In this document: in pieces, positions 21,110-52,410 of the stretch | Layout: each line of letters starts with the position of its first letter | Numbering within the stretch: position 1 is the first letter of the stretch | Origin: a virus | Virus record (IMG/VR): IMGVR_UViG_3300042934_000125 | Coordinates: 2,886-66,885 of that record | Length of the DNA: 64,000 nt | Strand: one strand, 5' to 3' | Notes under the pieces: model-generated | What the model saw: only the letters and a program-made list of their open reading frames with translations | Database searches by the model: none | What the model was told of the DNA's origin: nothing | Program-made: the position numbers and the translations under genes

Positions 21110-21203
21110 TAATAATAACTAATATATTTACGAAGTAAATATTAGTTATTATTAAGTATTATTATAGAGGGCGCAAATTTGCGACGTCATCGGACTAAAG
21201 CGT
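21110..21203 (-). repeat. Dispersed element copy 2 (inverted)
   Basis: Reverse complement ACGCTTTAGTCCGATGACGTCGCAAATTTGCGCCCTCTATAATAATACT plus palindrome at 21110-21154. Confidence 0.9.
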
Positions 21204-24154: not shown

Positions 24155-25060
24155 TTAAAACGGCACTACCATGGGGTTAAACACTTCTGGTGCTACTTGC
24201 TGTTCTACTTTGTTGTATGACACGAAACTCTTACGGCGTTTTCTGATGTAGTAAGCGATATCCGTCCCGCCGATATCGAACTCAATGTTCATGTGTCTTG
24301 CTCTCATGTTCTCGTCGTTCGCTTCGCGTTCAAGCATTTTCGCTGTCTTCGGTCTTACCTTTTTAGTGGCAAGTGCCATTTCCAAAATTCTATTTGTAAG
24401 GCGTACCCACATCTCGATTTTTTCAAAGTCGATTGTTCCGCTATGCCCTCTAAACTCAATTGTACCGTGTTTGACATATGAACAAGTGTTAATGTGGTAG
24501 TAACGCTTCTCAGTGTAATAGTGGCTTCCTGCTCCGCAGATGTCAACTCTGAAATCAGCCATCGTATCACATGCAAGCACTTTCTCAAGTTGCGCTCCTT
24601 CAATCGGCTTGCAGAAGCGGTTATCTTCGCGTCTACTAAGTGGTAGCATAGTCATCATTGTTTCCTCGTGCTTTGCCCACATTTGATAAAGGTTTTTAAA
24701 TTGCTCAAGTGTAGTGTAATCCGAAGCGTCATGATGTACATGCAATCCGCAACGTTTGTCCACTTTTGCTCCGACTTCTTCAAGCGTTTGGCATACGATT
24801 TGAAGTTCACGGAAGTCGCTTAGTACTGGGCTAACGATTTCGGCTCCACCTTGTACCGAAGCGTCTGGTTCTACTTTCCATTCATTGTAATCATAGTGCT
24901 GAGCGGATGATAACGCTCTTGCTCTCAAGCCTTTCGCTCTCAGCTTTGCCGCAAACTCTTCTTTCGTAACTACCAGTTCAGCGATCTCCATTTCTACTCC
25001 GAATTTGAATGCTCGTACCATTTTGACTCTCAGTAGTTCCATCGCATTTTTGTTTCCCAT
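24155..25060 (-). CDS. Putative amidoligase (COOH-NH2 ligase type 2, Amidoligase_2)
   Basis: FGVEME, W..E.DASV, EIVSPVL, CGLHVH, RY..IN, HGTIEFR.H.GT motifs; RBS favours ATG at 25060. Confidence 0.9.
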   Translation of the reverse strand: MGNKNAMELLRVKMVRAFKFGVEMEIAELVVTKEEFAAKLRAKGLRARALSSAQHYDYNEWKVEPDASVQGGAEIVSPVLSDFRELQIVCQTLEEVGAKVDKRCGLHVHHDASDYTTLEQFKNLYQMWAKHEETMMTMLPLSRREDNRFCKPIEGAQLEKVLACDTMADFRVDICGAGSHYYTEKRYYHINTCSYVKHGTIEFRGHSGTIDFEKIEMWVRLTNRILEMALATKKVRPKTAKMLEREANDENMRARHMNIEFDIGGTDIAYYIRKRRKSFVSYNKVEQQVAPEVFNPMVVPF

Positions 25061-25109
25061 GTGTGTCACTCACCTTTTCTCTGTTTGTGTGTTTCAACCT
25101 TATATCCCT

Positions 25110-25138
25110 ACTATACACTAACCTATATAATATTACAA
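25110..25138 (-). promoter_or_regulatory. sigmaA promoter with TATAGGTT box (amidoligase)
   Basis: TTGTAA-tattatataggttagtg-TATAGT. Confidence 0.8.
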
Positions 25139-25182
25139 GCCAACAGACAAAATAATTGATAACTTTATTTTCGTCCCTTTAC

Positions 25183-25211
25183 TTGACTTATTATATAGGT
25201 TGTACTATAAT
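25183..25211 (+). promoter_or_regulatory. Divergent sigmaA promoter with TATAGGTT box
   Basis: TTGACT-tattatataggttgtac-TATAAT. Confidence 0.88.
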
Positions 25212-25250
25212 AAAGGAGTAAGGCAAACAAACAGAAAAGGTGAGTGGAAC

Positions 25251-33125: not shown

Positions 33126-33153
33126 TAATCTGATTGAGGGCAGTTCTTAAACC
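33126..33153 (-). promoter_or_regulatory. Phage-type (middle) promoter overlapping a terminator hairpin
   Basis: GGTTTA-N17-GATTAGGTTT; its -10 lies inside the GCCCTCAA...TTGAGGGC stem. Confidence 0.65.
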
Positions 33154-33224
33154 TTATTTTTTGATTGATCGATGTACTGTACACCAGACACCTAATGTGA
33201 ACATAAATACTGCAAATTTCTCTA

Positions 33225-33737
33225 TCATTTCGGATACCATGCTTTGGAGTACTTATGGTTTTGAATATCAAGTGCCTTGAATACATTATCCATCAGTAAT
33301 AGATCAATCTCATCTTTCGTTGCCCCGATCTCCTCAGCGATTTCATTAACAGGTATTTCATGCTCGTTAACCAGAGTCTTCACGATATCTGCCATTTTGA
33401 TAGCGATGTGAGAACCCTTCGCCCGATTGATACGGATTGTGAGCAACATGCGCTCTGGTTCGGTCAGATTCATTACAACTACAGGAACCAAGCCGTTATA
33501 CTTCGCTTTGATCTTCGCGCTTGTACGGGCTAAGGAACTGCGGTGAAAGCCATCGATCACGACATAATCCTGAGTAACCAGAATAGGTTGAATCCAACCA
33601 TTACGAAGGATACTGAACTCAAGGAGTTTCAATTCCTTATTAAATACCACATTGGGATTGTAATCATTAGCAGATAGTTTCTCGACATCTACCCACTCTA
33701 CATTACTGATTGGACTTGCTGTTACATATTCATTCAT
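33225..33737 (-). CDS. IbrB-like ParB/Srx-domain protein
   Basis: P...V.WV....L.ANDYNPN.V...E.KLL..SI...GW.QPI, IDGFHR, TIR.NRAKG.H. Confidence 0.88.
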   Translation of the reverse strand: MNEYVTASPISNVEWVDVEKLSANDYNPNVVFNKELKLLEFSILRNGWIQPILVTQDYVVIDGFHRSSLARTSAKIKAKYNGLVPVVVMNLTEPERMLLTIRINRAKGSHIAIKMADIVKTLVNEHEIPVNEIAEEIGATKDEIDLLLMDNVFKALDIQNHKYSKAWYPK

Positions 33738-34135
33738 GTTTTCTTCCCCTTTACCATTCTTAATATGTCTGCTGTCGTGACTTTCTCTTCCTTCTTGCTA
33801 CTGAATGTAGGGATACCGTGAATGCTGAGTTGAGAGAAGTCTGGGTAATGAATAGCAGGATACTGTTTCCCTAACCACACTTCCTCAAAATATTCACATA
33901 CCTCTAAAGGATTACTGAAGCGTCTATGTGTCATCATGTGGCATCTCCAACATAGCGGCTCTAAGTACTTCGTAGGATGACTGTAATCATGACTATGGTA
34001 CTGGATGATACCTTTGTCCTGTTTGCATCGATTACATACCGTTGGAGGTGGGATTTCTCCCTCCGCGATTGCCTTCTTCATCAGTTTGTCCATTGCTGTT
34101 CGTTCTGCAGGAGACCAACCTTTGTAACTCTTCAT
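33734..34135 (-). CDS. HNH-like zinc-binding protein
   Basis: CNRC...H.HDYS.P...LC..CH...H. Confidence 0.7.
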   Translation of the reverse strand: MKSYKGWSPAERTAMDKLMKKAIAEGEIPPPTVCNRCKQDKGIIQYHSHDYSHPTKYLEPLCWRCHMMTHRRFSNPLEVCEYFEEVWLGKQYPAIHYPDFSQLSIHGIPTFSSKKEEKVTTADILRMVKGKKT

Positions 34136-34139
34136 TCGC

Positions 34140-34697
34140 TCACCTCAGTCTCAATACTCTACAGTTCTTGTATGTATGTACAAGATCATAGCTGTCCATG
34201 AAGTATACTAACTCCTTCTCGACCGCGGAAAGTGCCGCTGTAGGCTTTTTCACTGGCTTTCGACCTTCAATAATGATTGTTTTGATACGGGCTGTAGCAC
34301 AAGCCTCTGCAATCAATGGCATGACTTCTGGGTCAAGTTCATTGATTTCTGTAAACACTCGCCTTGCTACTACGGTATCTATATAGTGTGCAGTTAATAG
34401 CATCTTAAACCGTTGAATGGTTTCAGAATTGATATAGAAGTTCTCGTAATGAACTTGCGGATGCTGTACTGCTCTTTCATAGTACCCTTTGTTCCCTTCG
34501 ATACCTACAACGTGCATGAAGTCGCATTGCTCAATAAGACGGTTACTGAGTAGCCCTGTACAGCTACCCAGATCGACCGCATTTACTCCAGACACGTAAT
34601 TTGCGATGACAGTACCAATCTCATCATGTATTTTAGGGAATGTCCCTTTAGTATTGTAGTCATCAACTAACCTCTGTTCCGCAAATACGTTACCCAT
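34140..34697 (-). CDS. Class I SAM-dependent methyltransferase-like protein
   Basis: VDLGSCTG motif I followed by VVGIE acidic motif II. Confidence 0.7.
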   Translation of the reverse strand: MGNVFAEQRLVDDYNTKGTFPKIHDEIGTVIANYVSGVNAVDLGSCTGLLSNRLIEQCDFMHVVGIEGNKGYYERAVQHPQVHYENFYINSETIQRFKMLLTAHYIDTVVARRVFTEINELDPEVMPLIAEACATARIKTIIIEGRKPVKKPTAALSAVEKELVYFMDSYDLVHTYKNCRVLRLR

Positions 34698-35852
34698 TTA
34701 GTATCCCTTCCCTACTAAACTATTCTCGTACTCAATCTCATCCTTAGTAGGATTCTGAGTCGGCTGAATTTGACGTTTATAGTGTCCGCTTACCACGCTT
34801 TTGAAGACGTACAGTACTGGAAATCCTCCGAAGTTATCTCCTTGGATACCTGCTTTGTACCGCTTCGCCTTCATTTGTCGGCAAGAGAACACTTGAATCA
34901 TAGCTTTCTTCCGTTCGCTCGCATCTTCAATCGTATCATCGATGAACTTAACAAGTCCATTCCATGACTTCTCATACTGATAGATGACACCATAGCGGTC
35001 AAACTCTTTCCAATATAGTTCCTGAATCGTCATCTCAGGGAACAGAGTCATGATCTGCTCGTAGAACTTAGGGAACAATGTACGTAGCTTGTTCAATACT
35101 TTGGCTGACTCTGCGATGAATGGAGTGGCTACTCGTAGACTATCACCATTCCACATCTGCTTATCATAGGAGACACAATACTTGATATCTTTTTCGTAGA
35201 AGTAACGGAAGATATCTTTTTCGCTCCAATCAAAGATAGGCTTACAGAGTTTCACATTGAGAACGTCAGTCGCATTGATATAGTTCTCGTTCTTCTTATT
35301 GATAGAAGCCCTGAACCTGATCAGACTTTCATCTGCTCGGATACCTGTTAGTACCGCAACTTTCCCTTTGTAGTCCTTAGTAGCAAATGCGTCCATCGTG
35401 TATTGAGTGTAGACAGTTACTCCCTCATCTGTGATTGCATAAGGTGGCTTAGGTCTTACCCATTCCCGCCCCGTTTCCCACTGGATGTATTGGTGAGTGC
35501 GTCCAAGGATGAACTTTGTACTCTGCATTTGCACCGCGAACCACTTAGCGTCCCATTCTCCGCTTTCATGATAAGAGGCTACGAACTCTACTACATCATC
35601 AGGGATTAACTCCTCGTCCCTGAAGATGAATTTAGGTTTCTCAGTCATTCCTCGTTCTTCCATGACTTCTTTCATGAGATGAAGGGTGACAAGGCTATCC
35701 TTGCCGCCGCTGAAGGAAGTTACAACGGTATCGAACGTATCAAAGATGTGATGAATACGCTTCTTCGATTCAGTGTAAACGTCCGTATCGATATACTTCT
35801 TCAGCTTAGATACTGCTTTCTCTTGGACTTCTTTTTCCTCACTCATTATCAA
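34698..35852 (-). CDS. IbrA-like PAPS-reductase-family (PP-loop) protein
   Basis: SFSGGKDS PP-loop, F.DEE, GIRADES..RFR, PIFDW.EKD motifs. Confidence 0.88.
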   Translation of the reverse strand: MIMSEEKEVQEKAVSKLKKYIDTDVYTESKKRIHHIFDTFDTVVTSFSGGKDSLVTLHLMKEVMEERGMTEKPKFIFRDEELIPDDVVEFVASYHESGEWDAKWFAVQMQSTKFILGRTHQYIQWETGREWVRPKPPYAITDEGVTVYTQYTMDAFATKDYKGKVAVLTGIRADESLIRFRASINKKNENYINATDVLNVKLCKPIFDWSEKDIFRYFYEKDIKYCVSYDKQMWNGDSLRVATPFIAESAKVLNKLRTLFPKFYEQIMTLFPEMTIQELYWKEFDRYGVIYQYEKSWNGLVKFIDDTIEDASERKKAMIQVFSCRQMKAKRYKAGIQGDNFGGFPVLYVFKSVVSGHYKRQIQPTQNPTKDEIEYENSLVGKGY

Positions 35853-36471
35853 TCAGTCCTCTGTCTTGGATGTCAGCAATGATACGCTCTGCAATTGTCT
35901 CGCGGTCGGCGTACTGCTCTTTCAGACCTTTTAGGTAGCTATGCCAAATGGCTTGCTCTGCTTCATCGTTGAAGATGATATTGTATTGGATGACATAATT
36001 CTTTTCTTCCTTTTCCGTCTCGTCTTCACTGTCGCGGTCAGGAGTTGGGTCTTCTAAAGCCTCGTCACCGAAGTTGATCTCCAGTTTGATCTTCTCCAGA
36101 TCGATCATGTCAAAACCAGTAAGGTCTGTATCATAGTCAGACAGTTCCAGTTCGTCAATCTCTTTCATCAGTTTAGGATAATTCCACTCTGCCATCTCAG
36201 ATGCTTTATTATCCATGATACGGAAAGCCTTTACTTGTTCCTCTGTCAGATCATCTGCCACGATTACAGGTGCTACCTCAAGTCCCAGACGCTTAGCCGC
36301 TCTGAACCGTGTATGACCTGCTACGATCACCATATCTTTGTCTACGATGATAGGATTCTTAAAGCCGAACTCCTCAATGGATTTCATGACCAGTTCTACA
36401 GCATCGTCATTGTCCCGCGGGTTGTTCTCATATGGTTTCAAAAGTTGCAAAGAAAGTTCATTTACTTGCAT
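35839..36471 (-). CDS. ParB N-terminal (ParB/Srx) domain protein
   Basis: LKPYENNPR...SI.EFGF.NPIIVD...IVAGHTR..AA..LG...RIMDNK..E...W. Confidence 0.9.
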   Translation of the reverse strand: MQVNELSLQLLKPYENNPRDNDDAVELVMKSIEEFGFKNPIIVDKDMVIVAGHTRFRAAKRLGLEVAPVIVADDLTEEQVKAFRIMDNKASEMAEWNYPKLMKEIDELELSDYDTDLTGFDMIDLEKIKLEINFGDEALEDPTPDRDSEDETEKEEKNYVIQYNIIFNDEAEQAIWHSYLKGLKEQYADRETIAERIIADIQDRGLIDNE

Positions 36472-36574
36472 TTTTCTTCAATCTCCTTCCTAAACGCTTC
36501 AATTTTCTTCATTCACTTACAATGTCCGTTATTCTTTCCACTTTAGCAGGACAAGAAAAAAAGCCCCTCTGGGC

Positions 36575-36814
36575 TTAAAATCCTTGTGTTGCGAATCTTT
36601 TGTTGAATTCTCCTGCTCGTCTGTTCATTTCTGCTATGCAATCTTCAAGTTTATATTCTTGCCCGATGAAGTACCATCTTGCGCCCTTCTTGTCTGCTTC
36701 TTTAGCTTCGATTCTGAAGCAAGGTGCTCCAAGTTCAAGTCCTGTTACTACTCTCAAGATATCTCCGCGATTTAGTGTTACCGTAGCCAGTTGTTCTTTT
36801 TTGAATTTAGTCAT
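36575..36814 (-). CDS. Hypothetical early protein
   Basis: Own sigmaA promoter and terminator; AAAAGGTGG RBS favours ATG at 36814. Confidence 0.65.
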   Translation of the reverse strand: MTKFKKEQLATVTLNRGDILRVVTGLELGAPCFRIEAKEADKKGARWYFIGQEYKLEDCIAEMNRRAGEFNKRFATQGF

Positions 36815-36866
36815 TTTATATTCCACCTTTTGGTTTTTTTATTGTTTGCTTCAACCTTATAATCTT

Positions 36867-36895
36867 ATTATACATGAACCTATATAATAAGTCAA
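36867..36895 (-). promoter_or_regulatory. sigmaA promoter with TATAGGTT box
   Basis: TTGACT-tattatataggttcatg-TATAAT. Confidence 0.88.
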
Positions 36896-36905
36896 CAACA
36901 AAATA

Positions 36906-36974
36906 AAAAAAAAGTCCCTGCCGTGTTATCCGTCACGAGAGGAACCAAGAAGAAGAATATAAAGGTTATGAAAC
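36906..36974 (-). ncRNA. Candidate sRNA B (about 70 nt)
   Basis: TTGATT-N17-TACAAT promoter (37009-36981), no RBS or ORF, hairpin plus T-run terminator. Confidence 0.55.
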
Positions 36975-37012
36975 AAGATCATTGTAACATCTTGAGATAT
37001 CAAAATCAAGAC

Positions 37013-37099
37013 AAAAAAAGTGACACCAACCGAAGAGGTTAGTGCCAAGAGGTGTAAGGTTTAAACACAAAAAGGTGTGAACAAAGGTGAAACTACCGT
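37013..37099 (-). ncRNA. Candidate sRNA A (about 87 nt, anti-SD rich)
   Basis: TTGACG-N17-TATATT promoter (37134-37106), repeated ACCT motifs, terminator GGCACTAACC-TCTTC-GGTTGGTGTC followed by a T-run. Confidence 0.65.
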
Positions 37100-37130
37100 A
37101 CTACTAATATACATTATGTATCATCTGGCG

Positions 37131-37379
37131 TCAAGTGGCTTCGTAAAGATGACTAACGTCTAAATTAGAACGCTCAACTTCCTTCAGCCTGTTCTTGAAT
37201 AGGTTACTAAGCGGAATCTCTTTATGCTGACGATACTTCAATTGTTTCTCTGTCAGGTAGCAGTAATCCGCTTTCGTTTTCCATTTGTCGGTATTCTTAT
37301 AGTAATCATCATTCTCGCGCAACCAGTCATCTGTTCTTTGGTCTAACTCCTCATCCCTCAACCTCTTGGCATACATCAA
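37131..37379 (-). CDS. Hypothetical protein
   Basis: ORF track; coupled to the upstream gene. Confidence 0.6.
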   Translation of the reverse strand: MMYAKRLRDEELDQRTDDWLRENDDYYKNTDKWKTKADYCYLTEKQLKYRQHKEIPLSNLFKNRLKEVERSNLDVSHLYEAT

Positions 37380-37734
37380 ATACTCCCCCTAATAATTGCT
37401 TCTTCGCCACTTTCAGACCTTCCTTGACTCTATTGGAAATAGTTCTCTGGGATACATTCAATGTCTCAGCTACTTCAAACTGCGTGTACCCCTCGATCAG
37501 ATTCATCCGTAGAGCGATGACTTGCTCTGTAGAGAGCATAGTCTTCTCCATCCCGTAGTATCCAAGGATCAGCTTTAGGTCTACCATGATAGCCATAGCC
37601 ACTCCGTCTCCGCGGGAAGATAAGTCCTCCAGTAATTTCATGTTGATGATAATGTTCTTGAGAGCCGTTACCTTTTGGTAATCGGCTAACTTCATTAGCT
37701 TGATGTTATACGTCTCGCGCTGTACCGCTCCCAT
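37351..37734 (-). CDS. Sigma-70 region 4-like HTH protein (possible late transcription factor)
   Basis: LSTEQ..AL...LIEGYTQ.EVAE.LNVSQ.TIS.RV..GL. Confidence 0.75.
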   Translation of the reverse strand: MGAVQRETYNIKLMKLADYQKVTALKNIIINMKLLEDLSSRGDGVAMAIMVDLKLILGYYGMEKTMLSTEQVIALRMNLIEGYTQFEVAETLNVSQRTISNRVKEGLKVAKKQLLGGVFDVCQEVEG

Positions 37735-38164
37735 CGCCCTCTCCTACCTTTCTCTCAATGTAATCTACGATGTATTTTGCTACCTCTTCGTATTGCCCTT
37801 CAATAACCTTCTCTCTACTTAACTTATCAATCATGTAGATTGGACTCTTAACCAGATCGATCAGGTTCTCAACGAATAGCTGTAAACAGATTGCTTCCTT
37901 TGCTTCCCAGATATAATACATAACCGTGTAATTAACAAGGTCATCAATCGTATCCTCGATACTCTCCGTCTTTACCATGTTGCCTTTCTTCAGGAGTTTT
38001 GTGAGTCTATTCACCTTGTTCTCTGCTTGAATCAGGAAATATACTTTACCGTGTTTATCCAAACCTTTTTGTACGGAATTACCGTAATCTGCATTTTTCT
38101 GTATAAAGGTTAAAGTCTGTTTACAGACGTAATTTTCGTAGTTATGCATTTGCTTTGCCTCCAT
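37706..38164 (-). CDS. DUF1599/Nmad1-like all-alpha NTP pyrophosphatase-like protein
   Basis: KNADYGNS...K..RL..L......ESIEDT..DL.NY. Confidence 0.8.
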   Translation of the reverse strand: MEAKQMHNYENYVCKQTLTFIQKNADYGNSVQKGLDKHGKVYFLIQAENKVNRLTKLLKKGNMVKTESIEDTIDDLVNYTVMYYIWEAKEAICLQLFVENLIDLVKSPIYMIDKLSREKVIEGQYEEVAKYIVDYIERKVGEGDGSGTARDV

Positions 38165-38204
38165 AAGATAATAGATTAGGGAGGGCTTTCACCTCCCGCG
38201 CTTT

Positions 38205-38753
38205 TTACTTTGTTCCTGTGCTACCGTGACCGCCTCGATCTGGATTACCCAGTGTGTTTACTGCTGTGAACATTACGTTAGGCATTACTTCCTCTACCCG
38301 CATCTGACCTACTCTATCGTACTGCTCGATGATACCGTCCTTTAATGCGTAGTAGCTAACGAACCATTCGTCATTATCTCCGCTGAAGGATGTATCAATG
38401 ATCCCTTTGCTGTTCACTTGGATGAGTCCGAAGTTCTTATAGGTTGAACCTCGTGGGAGAACATACGCCTCGTACCCTTCGGGTAACTCCATAGCGAAAC
38501 CTAAGTAGACCTTTACTTCATCTCCCGCGTGATAACCAACTCCATAGATATCTTTCACGATCTCTTCAAAGTAATTAGTACCATCTACAGGCTTGTAACC
38601 CGTGACTAAAGTACCAGATAGGAAAGGTATAGGGACACCGTTGACTTCTATACGACACGCTCTGACATCTACCCAGTTCGAACGACTTTTACCTCCGAAA
38701 TGTTCAAGTTCTGGTACTCCTGAATCTTTGTACAATACTGGAATCGTAAGCAT
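38205..38753 (-). CDS. dut: Trimeric dUTPase
   Basis: [28 protein letters not shown] motifs. Confidence 0.9.
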
Positions 38754-38986
38754 TACATAAACTCCTTCAGCTTGTCTTGTAGTTTCTTGTTGCGTTCCAT
38801 GTCAGCTTTGGCAAGTTTGGCATGAGTAGCATGATACAGAATCTCTTGCTCTGCCGTGTCATTGATCTTTGTAAGTTCAGCATTTGCCGCTTCCAGATCG
38901 TCATGAGCTTTCTGGAATGTACCGAGTGCTTTTGTTACCTTCTTCATAGCCTTGTTAACTCGTCTTTCATGGGTTGTCTTAAACAT
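38753..38986 (-). CDS. Hypothetical coiled-coil protein
   Basis: GGAGG RBS; coupled. Confidence 0.6.
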
Positions 38987-38989
38987 TGT

Positions 38990-39604
38990 TCATCCTCCAA
39001 TTTGTTTTTTGTAGTTTAGTACGGCTCTGGAATACTGAGTTGAATAGATTCCGTTTCTCTTAGCCGAACGCATACCACCTTCACCCATGTTGTAAGCCAT
39101 TAGAATTGTTGTCTCGTCGTCGTACTTCCTATAGAGGTTCGACAGTATGTATACTCCTGCTCTAATGCTATCCTCTGGATTGGTAAAGTCCAGTGATCCT
39201 AATGCTTTGCGTAGACCTGCATGGTTTCCTGAGTTGATCTGCATGATGCCTACATCTACGGAACCATTTTTGTTTACGTTTCGGGCTTTCGGGTCGAAGT
39301 GACTTTCTTTCTCCATGACCGCTAACACCATGTCATAAGGGACTTTGCTGTTTAGGGCTTGCTCATACGTGAATTTTTGCAACTCTGTACTCAGGTCAAT
39401 ATCTCGTTGATAAGGCTTTTCTTCTTTTTTCGGCTGTTCGGGTTTTGTGTCGAATTTAGCCGATACAAACTGTACTGTTATAACAGGTATTTTCTCTGTA
39501 GATGTCACCTTTGCTTCCATGACAGGTGTTTCTTCTTTAATGAAGCACCCTAACAGTAAGGCAAGTGTAGCAACTACAGAAACAACCTTAGATAATACCG
39601 TAAT
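38990..39604 (-). CDS. Lytic transglycosylase (SLT), probably membrane-anchored; start extended to ATT
   Basis: AV..KES.F.P.A, D.GIMQIN, AYN.G motifs; in-frame hydrophobic signal upstream of the track start at 39520. Confidence 0.85.
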   Translation of the reverse strand: MTVLSKVVSVVATLALLLGCFIKEETPVMEAKVTSTEKIPVITVQFVSAKFDTKPEQPKKEEKPYQRDIDLSTELQKFTYEQALNSKVPYDMVLAVMEKESHFDPKARNVNKNGSVDVGIMQINSGNHAGLRKALGSLDFTNPEDSIRAGVYILSNLYRKYDDETTILMAYNMGEGGMRSAKRNGIYSTQYSRAVLNYKKQIGG

Positions 39605-44006: not shown

Positions 44007-44075
44007 CAAATTTGCGCCTTCTATAAGAATAATATAGATAATTAATATTTACTTCGTAAATATAATAATTATCTA
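44007..44075 (+). repeat. Dispersed element copy 3
   Basis: CAAATTTGCGCCTTCTATAAGAATA plus palindrome TAGATAATTA ATATTTAC TTC GTAAATAT A ATAATTATCTA. Confidence 0.85.
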
Positions 44076-44137: not shown

Positions 44138-45271
44138 TTACTTTGCTTCACGCTTGAACATTTTAGGTTTCCAAGGTTCTCCACTTTCCAGTAGTACTGC
44201 ACCGTCAGGTATAGGTCGATTCCATAGGTAGTATTCTACAGCGTAGTCAGCTTTGATTGAGTGAGCAATAGTTGGACGTCTCAGGTACATCCCCTCGTCT
44301 CGCCGCTCGTCGTAGCTTTCCAGACCGTCAAGTCTGTCCTTCGTTATAGCATCTACCTCGTATATTTCCCCTCTAACCTCGCCCTCGCCCTTTTTAACGG
44401 CAGGGAATCCGAATGGTAAATCATATATCTCCCCTTCAATCCAAGCGTTCTCAACGAACGTGGAGCCTTCAAGAAGCCTATGATTGTGATACCCCTTCTT
44501 CAGTGTGCCGTAAACGAACACCAGATGTTTTCCTGTACTACCCTTACCTATGAATTTTCGTTTAGTAGAAGCGGTATTGATAACTTCTGTAACTTTTTCT
44601 TCCTTTGGCTTAATCTCAGCTTGAGGTGTAGCGTCCATGCTATACTTGAGGGATTCTTGCAAGACAGCCAAGTCAAATCTGAAATGCTTGTATCCTCTGA
44701 TAATATACTCCAGATAACCTTCTTCAGGTACTCCGTATCCTCGTCTAACTTTTTCATATCCATCCGTGTAGAACCCTTTCTTCACTTCCACCGTTTTCTT
44801 GTTTTTGATGAACGCGGGCATTATGTAAGTCTGTACTTTCAGCGGTTCATTTCGAAACTTCAGAGTGATTGGCGTTCTTTCGTACACATTCGGATGTCCT
44901 TCGCATTTATCGAGAACCTTACGGTCAGCTTCTTCAATGTGAAAAATAGTTCCCCAGACTTGTGAACCTTCATGCTCCTCGATGTTAGCTACGATCTTAC
45001 CTGCGTTATTCTCAGTGAACGTCAATCTGTAGCCGCCGAGTGCTCCACTTCCGATCACTTGTGCGGAAGGGCAACGCTCTTTCATTCTCTCAGGGTCTAA
45101 ATTGGAACCGTAGGCGAAGTATAACATGTCTTTAATCTCCTCTTTTTTGGTAGTTTTCTTTGTTGGTGCTTCGTGCCGTGGTTTAGGGAGTATTTTCTCC
45201 TTCATGGGTTTAGCTTTCTTTTTCCCATTTATCTCCTTCGGCGCATTGAACAGATGATCAAGCCATCCCAT
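44138..45271 (-). CDS. Tandem gamma-glutamylcyclotransferase (GGCT/AIG2-like) domain protein
   Basis: YFAYGSNL...LD..EG.P..Y and VFVYGTLKKG..NH...LD.LE motifs. Confidence 0.9.
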   Translation of the reverse strand: MGWLDHLFNAPKEINGKKKAKPMKEKILPKPRHEAPTKKTTKKEEIKDMLYFAYGSNLDPERMKERCPSAQVIGSGALGGYRLTFTENNAGKIVANIEEHEGSQVWGTIFHIEEADRKVLDKCEGHPNVYERTPITLKFRNEPLKVQTYIMPAFIKNKKTVEVKKGFYTDGYEKVRRGYGVPEEGYLEYIIRGYKHFRFDLAVLQESLKYSMDATPQAEIKPKEEKVTEVINTASTKRKFIGKGSTGKHLVFVYGTLKKGYHNHRLLEGSTFVENAWIEGEIYDLPFGFPAVKKGEGEVRGEIYEVDAITKDRLDGLESYDERRDEGMYLRRPTIAHSIKADYAVEYYLWNRPIPDGAVLLESGEPWKPKMFKREAK

Positions 45272-52300: not shown

Positions 52301-52410
52301 AAGAAAAAAAAGAACCCTTTCAGGTTCTCTGTGTTATATGTGCCCATCGTTTACCTAACTTAATGTTACTTACATGCCCTAATCTTCATAGTAAGCAATA
52401 GGTTTCCAGA

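Follow-up and report, generated by a model that had tools for sequence, protein, structure and literature searches.

In the review PMC12197685, the c4 antisense RNA of phages P1 and P7 is described as a small RNA that pairs with complementary stretches on the ant mRNA, in the region of the ribosome-binding site (RBS), whereby translation is blocked. The locus compared here with this and other described systems is a 305-nt gap (36827-37130) between two genes of a phage from a soil metagenome (IMG/VR record IMGVR_UViG_3300042934_000125). The DNA analysed, a stretch of 64,000 nt referred to as the window, comprises bases 2886-66885 of the single 66,885-bp contig of the phage genome, and coordinates are given in the window. 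In the initial annotation, the minus strand of the gap was read as two tandem promoter-terminator units devoid of an open reading frame (ORF), encoding the small RNAs (sRNAs) RNA A and RNA B, which were proposed to pair with the 5' leaders of dispersed early genes of the same phage.

The c4 gene is situated ahead of its target, in the same orientation. RNA A is likewise located upstream, on the same strand, of the gene of a 79-amino acid (aa) protein. The leader of this gene pairs with RNA A when the region is folded in one piece, but ranks only 10th of 101 as a predicted partner. While c4 has an immunity function in temperate phages and controls a single operon, the targets of the proposed RNA A would be several dispersed early cassettes, and the phage looks lytic; no sequence or Rfam relation connects the two. 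The Firmicutes sRNAs directed against Shine-Dalgarno (SD) sequences, such as RsaE/RoxS and those of the RNAIII type, use C/U-rich seeds; they are chromosomal, conserved and experimentally shown, with the motifs placed in loops. RNA A resembles them in being short and ORF-less, in ending at an intrinsic terminator and in carrying several unpaired pyrimidine motifs complementary to SD sequences, and differs from them in that the motifs lie in a nearly unstructured 5' half and that it has no Rfam match. Early-gene silencing at the SD level is also the logic of RegB of phage T4, a protein endoribonuclease responsible for post-transcriptional early-gene shut-off at SD sequences; here, an RNA would mask the SD sequence. 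Plant microRNA genes, which owe the complementarity to their targets to an inverted duplication, offer an analogy for the origin only, since kingdom and machinery are different and the homology found here exceeds the region needed for pairing.

Phage lambda forms a short terminated RNA, 6S, from its promoter PR'. Unlike in the lambda Q/PR'-tR' unit, no antiterminator family was found in Pfam and PHROGs scans of 30 neighbouring proteins, and the adjacent regulator matched sigma-70 region 4. The gap also resembles tandem terminators at operon ends, with two hairpin and U-run elements about 100 nt apart, after the last gene and ahead of a strong promoter; unlike in the usual arrangement, the first of them lies 84 nt from the stop codon and the spacer holds what appears to be an inverted leader copy. 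Among the literature matches listed, neither a phage anti-SD RNA directed against early genes of the same phage nor a regulator RNA of the bacterial world born by inverted duplication of its target was described.

Organization of the gap

The favoured interpretation, with a probability of roughly 45%, is a boundary of tandem terminators that contains a decayed inverted copy of an early cassette, the complementarity to early leaders being due to descent and the promoter-like sites P_A and P_B being generic. The gap would separate the operon of a sigma-like protein and an 81-aa protein from P3, the strong early promoter ahead of a DNA-modification operon, and the two terminators would insulate P3 from upstream transcription. 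The segment between the stop codon of the 81-aa gene and terminator A would be an inverted, partly decayed copy of an early cassette, closest to that of an amidoligase gene; its -35 and -10 elements would be gone and the remnant of its promoter box would have become part of the terminator A hairpin, as one of the two arms. As a consequence of the inversion, the RNA of the sense strand would be pyrimidine-rich and carry anti-SD strings. Complementarity to the early leaders would have been inherited and not selected for pairing, P_A and P_B would be generic sigma-70-like matches that may or may not fire, and unit B may represent a cassette that has lost its content, or serve just as a terminator in reserve. 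We infer that the stretch is without regulatory use. The features of the gap and its borders are the following.

37351-37734, minus strand: 127-aa protein with sigma-70 region 4 (sigma_r4 Pfam match), operon partner of the 81-aa gene
37131..37376, minus strand: 81-aa gene, ORF with SD sequence, upstream of the gap and last gene of the operon
37106..37134, minus strand: promoter-like site P_A, TTGACG-17-TATATT, 10/12 matches, -35 hexamer overlapping the stop codon of the 81-aa gene
37012..37099, minus strand: RNA A as predicted, about 88 nt; its 5' half is rich in pyrimidines and has little structure, and the terminator hairpin comes after it
37048..37089, minus strand: anti-leader segment with three anti-SD heptamers CACCT[CT]T (37089, 37077, 37054) and the complement of TAAGGTTTAAACAC
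37036..37090, plus strand: putative inverted, partly decayed copy of an early promoter-leader cassette, closest to the amidoligase cassette 25138-25061
37013..37047, minus strand: intrinsic terminator A, 11-bp stem (37047-37021) followed by a T7 run, -15.1 kcal/mol
36981..37009, minus strand: promoter-like site P_B, TTGATT-17-TACAAT, 9/12 matches, TG at -15/-14
36906..36974, minus strand: predicted RNA B, about 69 nt, between P_B and terminator B
36905..36945, minus strand: intrinsic terminator B, interrupted 12-bp hairpin (36945-36914) followed by a T9 run
36867..36895, minus strand: promoter P3, TTGACT-17-TATAAT, 11/12 matches, member of the TATAGGTT-box family, 41.7 bits, rank 3 genome-wide
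36815..36860, minus strand: leader of the 79-aa gene (ATAAGGTTGAAGC ... AAAAGGTGG), possible cis or trans partner of RNA A
36575-36814/36826, minus strand: 79/83-aa gene, downstream of the gap, heading the ParB/PAPS-reductase/methyltransferase modification module

Homology to an early cassette in inverted orientation

A 56-nt alignment was obtained between the plus strand of the gap and the amidoligase cassette. It begins at AGGTTAGTG, the 3' part of the promoter box, in the promoter spacer and upstream of any transcript, crosses a destroyed -10 element, continues with TAAGGTT(G/T)AAACAC and ends at AAAGGTGA, the SD sequence. Its score of 35 was reached by none of 200 shuffles (18.3 ± 2.9) and exceeded the best of 12 cassettes in all 200; with 101 upstream regions as search space, it was reached by 3 of 150 shuffles (shuffle maximum 26.7 ± 2.9). 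In direct orientation, the gap gave no signal with cassettes or upstream regions. BLAST of the gap against the whole genome yielded no significant piece (best 15 nt, E = 3), so that the claim of homology rests on restricted search spaces; its statistical weight is moderate. Since the homology extends into untranscribed promoter DNA, the complementarity between RNA A and the leaders would originate from an inverted DNA duplication, which argues for an inverted DNA copy of a cassette that was not shaped solely by selection for pairing. In terminator A, the 5' arm is now made up of the box remnant. The initial annotation had named, as a scenario that would refute its model, a duplicated leader left as an inverted and non-conserved relic; the first half of this scenario is matched by the homology, which runs on into promoter DNA outside any transcript. 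Two of the cassettes are given below.

25061..25138, minus strand: promoter and leader of the amidoligase cassette, the nearest paralogue of the inverted copy, ranking second among the predicted partners of RNA A
25183..25250, plus strand: divergent box cassette of a 64-aa gene, best predicted partner of RNA A (corrected cofold energy -28.5, rank 1/101)

The amidoligase gene has an Amidoligase_2 Pfam match of 2.2e-36. The two cassettes stand back to back (25061-25250), the amidoligase gene being on the minus strand and the 64-aa gene on the opposite one, and about 45 bp separate their promoters. Very few genes of this genome are located on the plus strand, the 64-aa gene being among them. In the terminator hairpin 33139-33093, after the second ParB-like gene (region 33160-33090), a degenerate box-like string (GATTAGGTTTATGTGAAG) was noted; the sequence ATAAGGTTTAAGAAC ahead of it resembles a leader start in direct orientation. 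By this second box-like copy, cassette debris would be present elsewhere in the genome.

Terminators and predicted RNAs

Both A and B have the G+C-rich hairpin and U run of intrinsic terminators. The initial annotation had assigned one such terminator to each unit, which was borne out by folding (11 bp and T7 for A, interrupted 12 bp and T9 for B). Terminator B, with a fold energy of -12.3 to -14.4 kcal/mol, was missed by a stricter consensus scan and recovered by folding. Predicted RNA A folds with -21.3 kcal/mol (z-score -4.2), equalled by 0 of 200 shuffles, and predicted RNA B with -14.4 kcal/mol (z-score -2.3), equalled by 4 of 200. As had been claimed, units A and B contain no ATG-started or SD-preceded ORF; the sole frames begin with UUG or GUG, lack an SD sequence and comprise 7-18 codons. 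On the plus strand, a 39-aa frame (36923-37042) with an inner 24-codon ATG frame was rejected, there being no promoter and the SD sequence lying too near the ATG.

The genome contains about 35 good sense-strand terminators, which are mostly separated from the preceding stop codon by no more than about 15 nt. For terminator A, the distance to the stop codon of the 81-aa gene is 84 nt, and two others (near 52327 and 33139) are about as distant. That units A and B arose by tandem duplication, from one another or from the P3 cassette, was discarded on account of an unconvincing alignment (51% mean column identity). None of the sequencing runs on record as containing this DNA is RNA.

Promoter-like sites and the promoter family of the phage

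P_A and P_B were found at the positions given for them in the initial annotation, with 17-bp spacers (10/12 matches, and 9/12 plus TG), and both have the hexamers and spacing of sigma-70/sigma-A promoters. Their designation as sigma-A promoters is upheld as far as hexamers and spacing are concerned, and is weakened by a density of such sites at chance level and by their position outside the promoter family of the phage. In the region 35000-39000, 7 promoter-like sites were counted compared to 8.2 ± 3.2 in shuffles, i.e. without local enrichment. With a crude list of 101 genes as the basis for intergenic counts, the remaining 7,381 nt of intergenic DNA gave 13 sense-strand promoter hits outside the box family. 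The probability of at least 2 promoter-like hits in the 305-nt gap is 0.10. That both terminators have a hit in the 70-nt window preceding them has a probability of 0.013, which by our own arithmetic becomes roughly 0.04-0.24 if about 8 comparable genome windows are allowed for.

A family of 11 promoters shares the 33-bp consensus GCTTGnnnTAnnATATAGGTTnnTGTATAAT, which includes the spacer TATATAGGTT, is partly palindromic and always has a 17-bp spacer.

23851, 25138, 25183(+), 36895, 45332, 46403, 55079, 23609 and 50065: box-promoter family sites in the window
-73 and -2241 (window coordinates): two further box-promoter sites, before the window

On their own matrix, the family promoters score 35-45 bits and the next-best site of the genome 15.3 bits. 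P3, as a member of this family, is predicted to drive the 79-aa gene and the ParB/PAPS-reductase/methyltransferase module. P_A scores -2.7 bits on the family matrix (rank 150 of 133,698 positions) and P_B -13.4 bits (rank 2,662 of 133,698); because of these low scores, both are at best ordinary sigma-A sites outside the phage's promoter class. The conservation of the spacer among the family promoters suggests that a factor other than sigma-A reads the TATAGGTT-box promoters. A box promoter of 37.4 bits is also present in L062, a 4.7-kb contig and the sole relative recovered, the proteins of which (L014/L062) are about 60% identical to another part of this genome.

Complementarity to early leaders

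Pairing was evaluated with 101 leader strings, each consisting of 60 nt upstream and 20 nt coding sequence; the strings of short leaders hold up to about 10 untranscribed bases, by which some duplexes are inflated. The query for RNA A was its 52-nt 5' part and the controls were dinucleotide shuffles. Energies are cofold differences corrected for self-structure (ddG), which were preferred to plain duplexfold, since the latter permits huge internal loops.

The strings quoted in the initial annotation for RNA A, RNA B and four leaders are all present in the sequence. Complementarity of RNA A to early leaders, as claimed there, was modestly above chance. The best local score of its complement was 29 (amidoligase leader) compared to 22.2 ± 2.5, reached by 2% of 300 shuffles, and both the top-6 mean and the mean over the four box cassettes were reached by 0 of 300. 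The minimum ddG was -28.5 (shuffles -24.1 ± 3.2; 3 of 28 reach it). The cofold ranks of the four box-cassette leaders for RNA A (2, 1, 10 and 11 of 101) speak for the initial annotation, in which a top ranking of the early leaders was to count as support, although much of this energy is compositional. Shuffled RNA A binds the box leaders with -17.0 compared to -10.0 for the median leader, and reversed RNA A still ranks the four box leaders 5, 10, 21 and 6. Since both controls still favour the purine-rich box leaders, the evidence from ranks is inflated by composition; native RNA A is about 6 kcal/mol better than the reversed control.

Pairing of RNA B with the leaders, also part of the initial annotation, was not above chance. 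Its best local score of 22 (shuffles 21.8 ± 2.3) was reached by 52% of shuffles and its minimum ddG of -17.5 (shuffles -18.7 ± 1.7) by 17 of 22. The top-5 mean ddG was reached by 8 of 22 and the mean over the four box leaders by 3 of 22, the corresponding local score by 3.7% of shuffles; the cofold ranks of the four box leaders were 3, 1, 5 and 30 of 101. The proposed model of multi-target anti-leader sRNAs hence has partial support for RNA A, which is above shuffles and carries the sole anti-SD cluster, and is not supported for RNA B.

The predicted duplexes of RNA A with the amidoligase and 64-aa leaders span the 5' end to the start codon; the differences between RNA A and the amidoligase leader are not wobble-compatible. 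With the leader of the 79-aa gene, a ddG of -17.9 (rank 10/101) was obtained. If a stretch of 326 nt is folded as one RNA, the 5' part of RNA A pairs with this leader and its SD sequence (z-score -3.2, 1 of 100 shuffles); these long-range pairs are missing from the centroid fold. In all of the 66.9-kb genome, the sense strand has only 7 copies of the heptamer CACCT[CT]T, and 3 of the 7 lie within a 42-nt part of RNA A, the sole cluster. Two of these three are located in a 12-nt tandem repeat (GUUUCACCUUU / GUUCACACCUUU). A perfect 10-nt complement of RNA A at 33147-33156 was rejected as being within chance for a genome of this size.

Alternative explanations

Several observations weigh against a terminator boundary with a decayed cassette copy. 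A second strong terminator without a preceding ORF is unparalleled elsewhere in this genome, and each promoter-like site is located 60-90 nt ahead of a terminator (chance 0.013). A 17-bp spacer is found in P_A, P_B and all 11 family promoters, but in only 1 of 13 other intergenic hits. The top-5 mean ddG of RNA A (-25.6 compared to -20.9 ± 2.4) was reached by 0 of 28 shuffles and its mean over the four box leaders (-22.6 compared to -17.0 ± 2.5) by 1 of 28, and three heptamers in 42 nt require an extra 12-nt tandem duplication beyond a single inverted leader. RNA A might instead be a working anti-leader RNA, either transcribed from P_A or constituting the 3' tail of the sigma-like/81-aa mRNA, for which terminator A is the end point; we regard this as possible, if on the whole unlikely. 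Its three anti-SD strings and the leader-start complement (UAAGGUU...AAACAC) would pair with the amidoligase, 64-aa and adjacent 79-aa leaders and cover 5' end, SD sequence and start codon, so that translation would be turned off; RNA B would be accessory at most, and the gene of RNA A would have arisen by inverted duplication of a target cassette. The anti-leader segment follows a real stop codon on the sense strand and precedes the first terminator, so that transcription of the sigma-like operon would always include it, with or without P_A; in terms of timing, the early cassettes would then be silenced by the phase that succeeds them. The ranks of the box leaders, the top-5 and box-4 energies above those of shuffles, the advantage over the reversed control and the anti-SD cluster are in line with this, as are duplexes that reach the start codon and a suitably placed promoter with 17-bp spacing. 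It is harder to reconcile with a best single energy reached by 3 of 28 shuffles, with leader strings whose untranscribed bases inflate some duplexes and with differences from the amidoligase leader that wobble pairs do not bridge; moreover, P_A would fire simultaneously with the supposed early targets, and homology into untranscribed promoter DNA is unnecessary for pairing. Slightly less probable is the more specific proposal that a multi-seed anti-SD RNA, born by inverted cassette duplication and expressed from its own promoter, with the 3' tail of the sigma-like (middle) operon or in both ways, masks the 5' ends and RBSs of early leaders and ties their shut-off to the next transcription phase. 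If RNA A works as proposed, the phage would silence its own early genes by an anti-leader RNA rather than a protein, and a clear case of a regulator RNA derived from inverted duplication of its target would be at hand for the bacterial world. If the stretch is a relic, it shows that a candidate sRNA may be complementary to its supposed targets merely through accidental descent, and that leaders rich in purines rank high in energy with any RNA rich in pyrimidines.

Alternatively, units A and/or B may be real sRNAs with host mRNAs or host factors as targets or with some other role, the match to the leaders being incidental to their origin. The promoter-terminator anatomy fits such sRNAs, and non-coding RNAs of unclear role are mentioned for lytic-phage transcriptomes among the literature matches listed and in the review PMC12197685; no sequence feature points to a host target, and this explanation appears improbable. 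It is very improbable that the leader start TAAGGTT..AAAC is a protein operator and that its two inverted copies in the gap (at about 37061 and 36968) are auxiliary operators repressing P3, for instance by looping. TAAGG does recur at the +1 region of 8 of 12 promoters, their centres are about 114 and 93 bp away from that of the P3 copy, close to whole helical turns, and the conservation of the family over 33 bp including the spacer, retained in L062, exceeds the needs of sigma-A. However, the copies in the gap are imperfect, that of unit B with inserted bases, TA[TA]AGGTT occurs in coding DNA too, no candidate repressor was identified and the argument from spacing is post hoc. The least probable explanation is an antitermination or attenuation leader, in which P_A would give rise to a short terminated RNA until a phage factor permits read-through of A and B into the modification operon; in the read-through RNA, the anti-leader segment would mask the SD sequence of the 79-aa gene. 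The order of regulator gene, promoter, terminators and operon and the pairing seen in the one-piece fold (z-score -3.2, 1 of 100 shuffles) are compatible with it. The upstream regulator, however, is sigma-region-4-like, with no Q-like or antiterminator family among the 30 neighbouring proteins, P3 as one of the strongest promoters already precedes the operon, and the long-range pairs are missing from the centroid fold.

The phage and its relatives

Nearly all genes of the phage are located on the minus strand. Pfam and PHROGs scans revealed a large and a small terminase, tail and lysis genes and a ribonucleotide reductase, besides the ParB/PAPS-reductase/methyltransferase module. The phage appears lytic and Firmicute-style. 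A DNA search of GenBank phages gave no match to the genome. The large terminase is less than 60% identical to every GenBank phage record matched (25.6-27.2% among the 15 matches listed), and the sigma-like protein and the 83-aa ORF had zero matches in a protein search of GenBank phages. The 81-aa gene is real, as a protein of a relative (P0004) is 96% identical over all 81 residues and has the same length and C-terminus. Relatives of the 127-aa sigma-like protein exist at 91% identity. Compared to these, which run on with RA(L/I)RSDNG, the protein of this phage ends 8 residues earlier (37351-37353). A scan for tRNA and tmRNA found none. An Rfam scan of 35500-38500 gave 8 matches at E ≤ 10, none of which overlaps 36906-37134 or attains the gathering score.

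No copy of the locus was found in viral contigs searched via ParB, the sigma-like protein, the PAPS reductase and a dUTPase-like protein. Searches with the box-promoter pattern led only to the L014/L062 relative (4.7 kb), which stems from another genome region. Scans of metagenome contigs and genome contigs for relatives of the locus were empty, and GenBank phages, searched with DNA and three proteins, contained no relative of it. In L015 and L016, two contigs that share the downstream modification module, no comparable units precede ParB, which speaks for the interpretation as a terminator boundary with a decayed cassette copy. Two DNA runs contain the same or a near-identical phage. In a second soil metagenome run from a different study, low-depth contigs cover 36936-37194 and 37376-37551. 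The 259-nt contig of this run (X2) shows 3 differences, including 37128 and 37158, none of which is informative.

The module of ParB, PAPS reductase, methyltransferase, HNH-like and ParB-like protein is located at 33225-36471 of the window, at 1800-4950 in L015 and at 5421-8350 in L016. Its proteins are 35-77% identical on the aa level to those of L015 and L016 (PAPS reductase 52-60%, ParB-like protein 68-77%), the contigs being otherwise unrelated, so that it seemingly behaves as a movable DNA-modification module.

Further features of the genome

Directly after terminators, a second recurring motif was observed, consisting of (G)TTnAGAAt, about 17 nt of intervening sequence and GATTATGTTTA, which may be a promoter class for the sigma-like protein encoded by 37351-37734.

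about 52300, 54600, 40010, 49250 and 50340, and one before the window at about -640: sites of the (G)TTnAGAAt motif

Three long AT-rich palindromes centred on TTTAC(N3-4)GTAAA are found at 44075-44015, 21165-21085 and 520-440. Those at 44075 and 520 are each followed by TATAGAAGGCGCA, and the copy at 21165 has GCGCAAATTTGC alongside instead. The palindromes may constitute a third class of promoters or else serve as an origin or as a signal for packaging. Among the proteins encoded by the early cassettes are a double gamma-glutamyl-cyclotransferase-like protein (44138-45271) and the Amidoligase_2 protein (24155-25060), a pairing that suggests a chemistry of peptide or metabolite modification.

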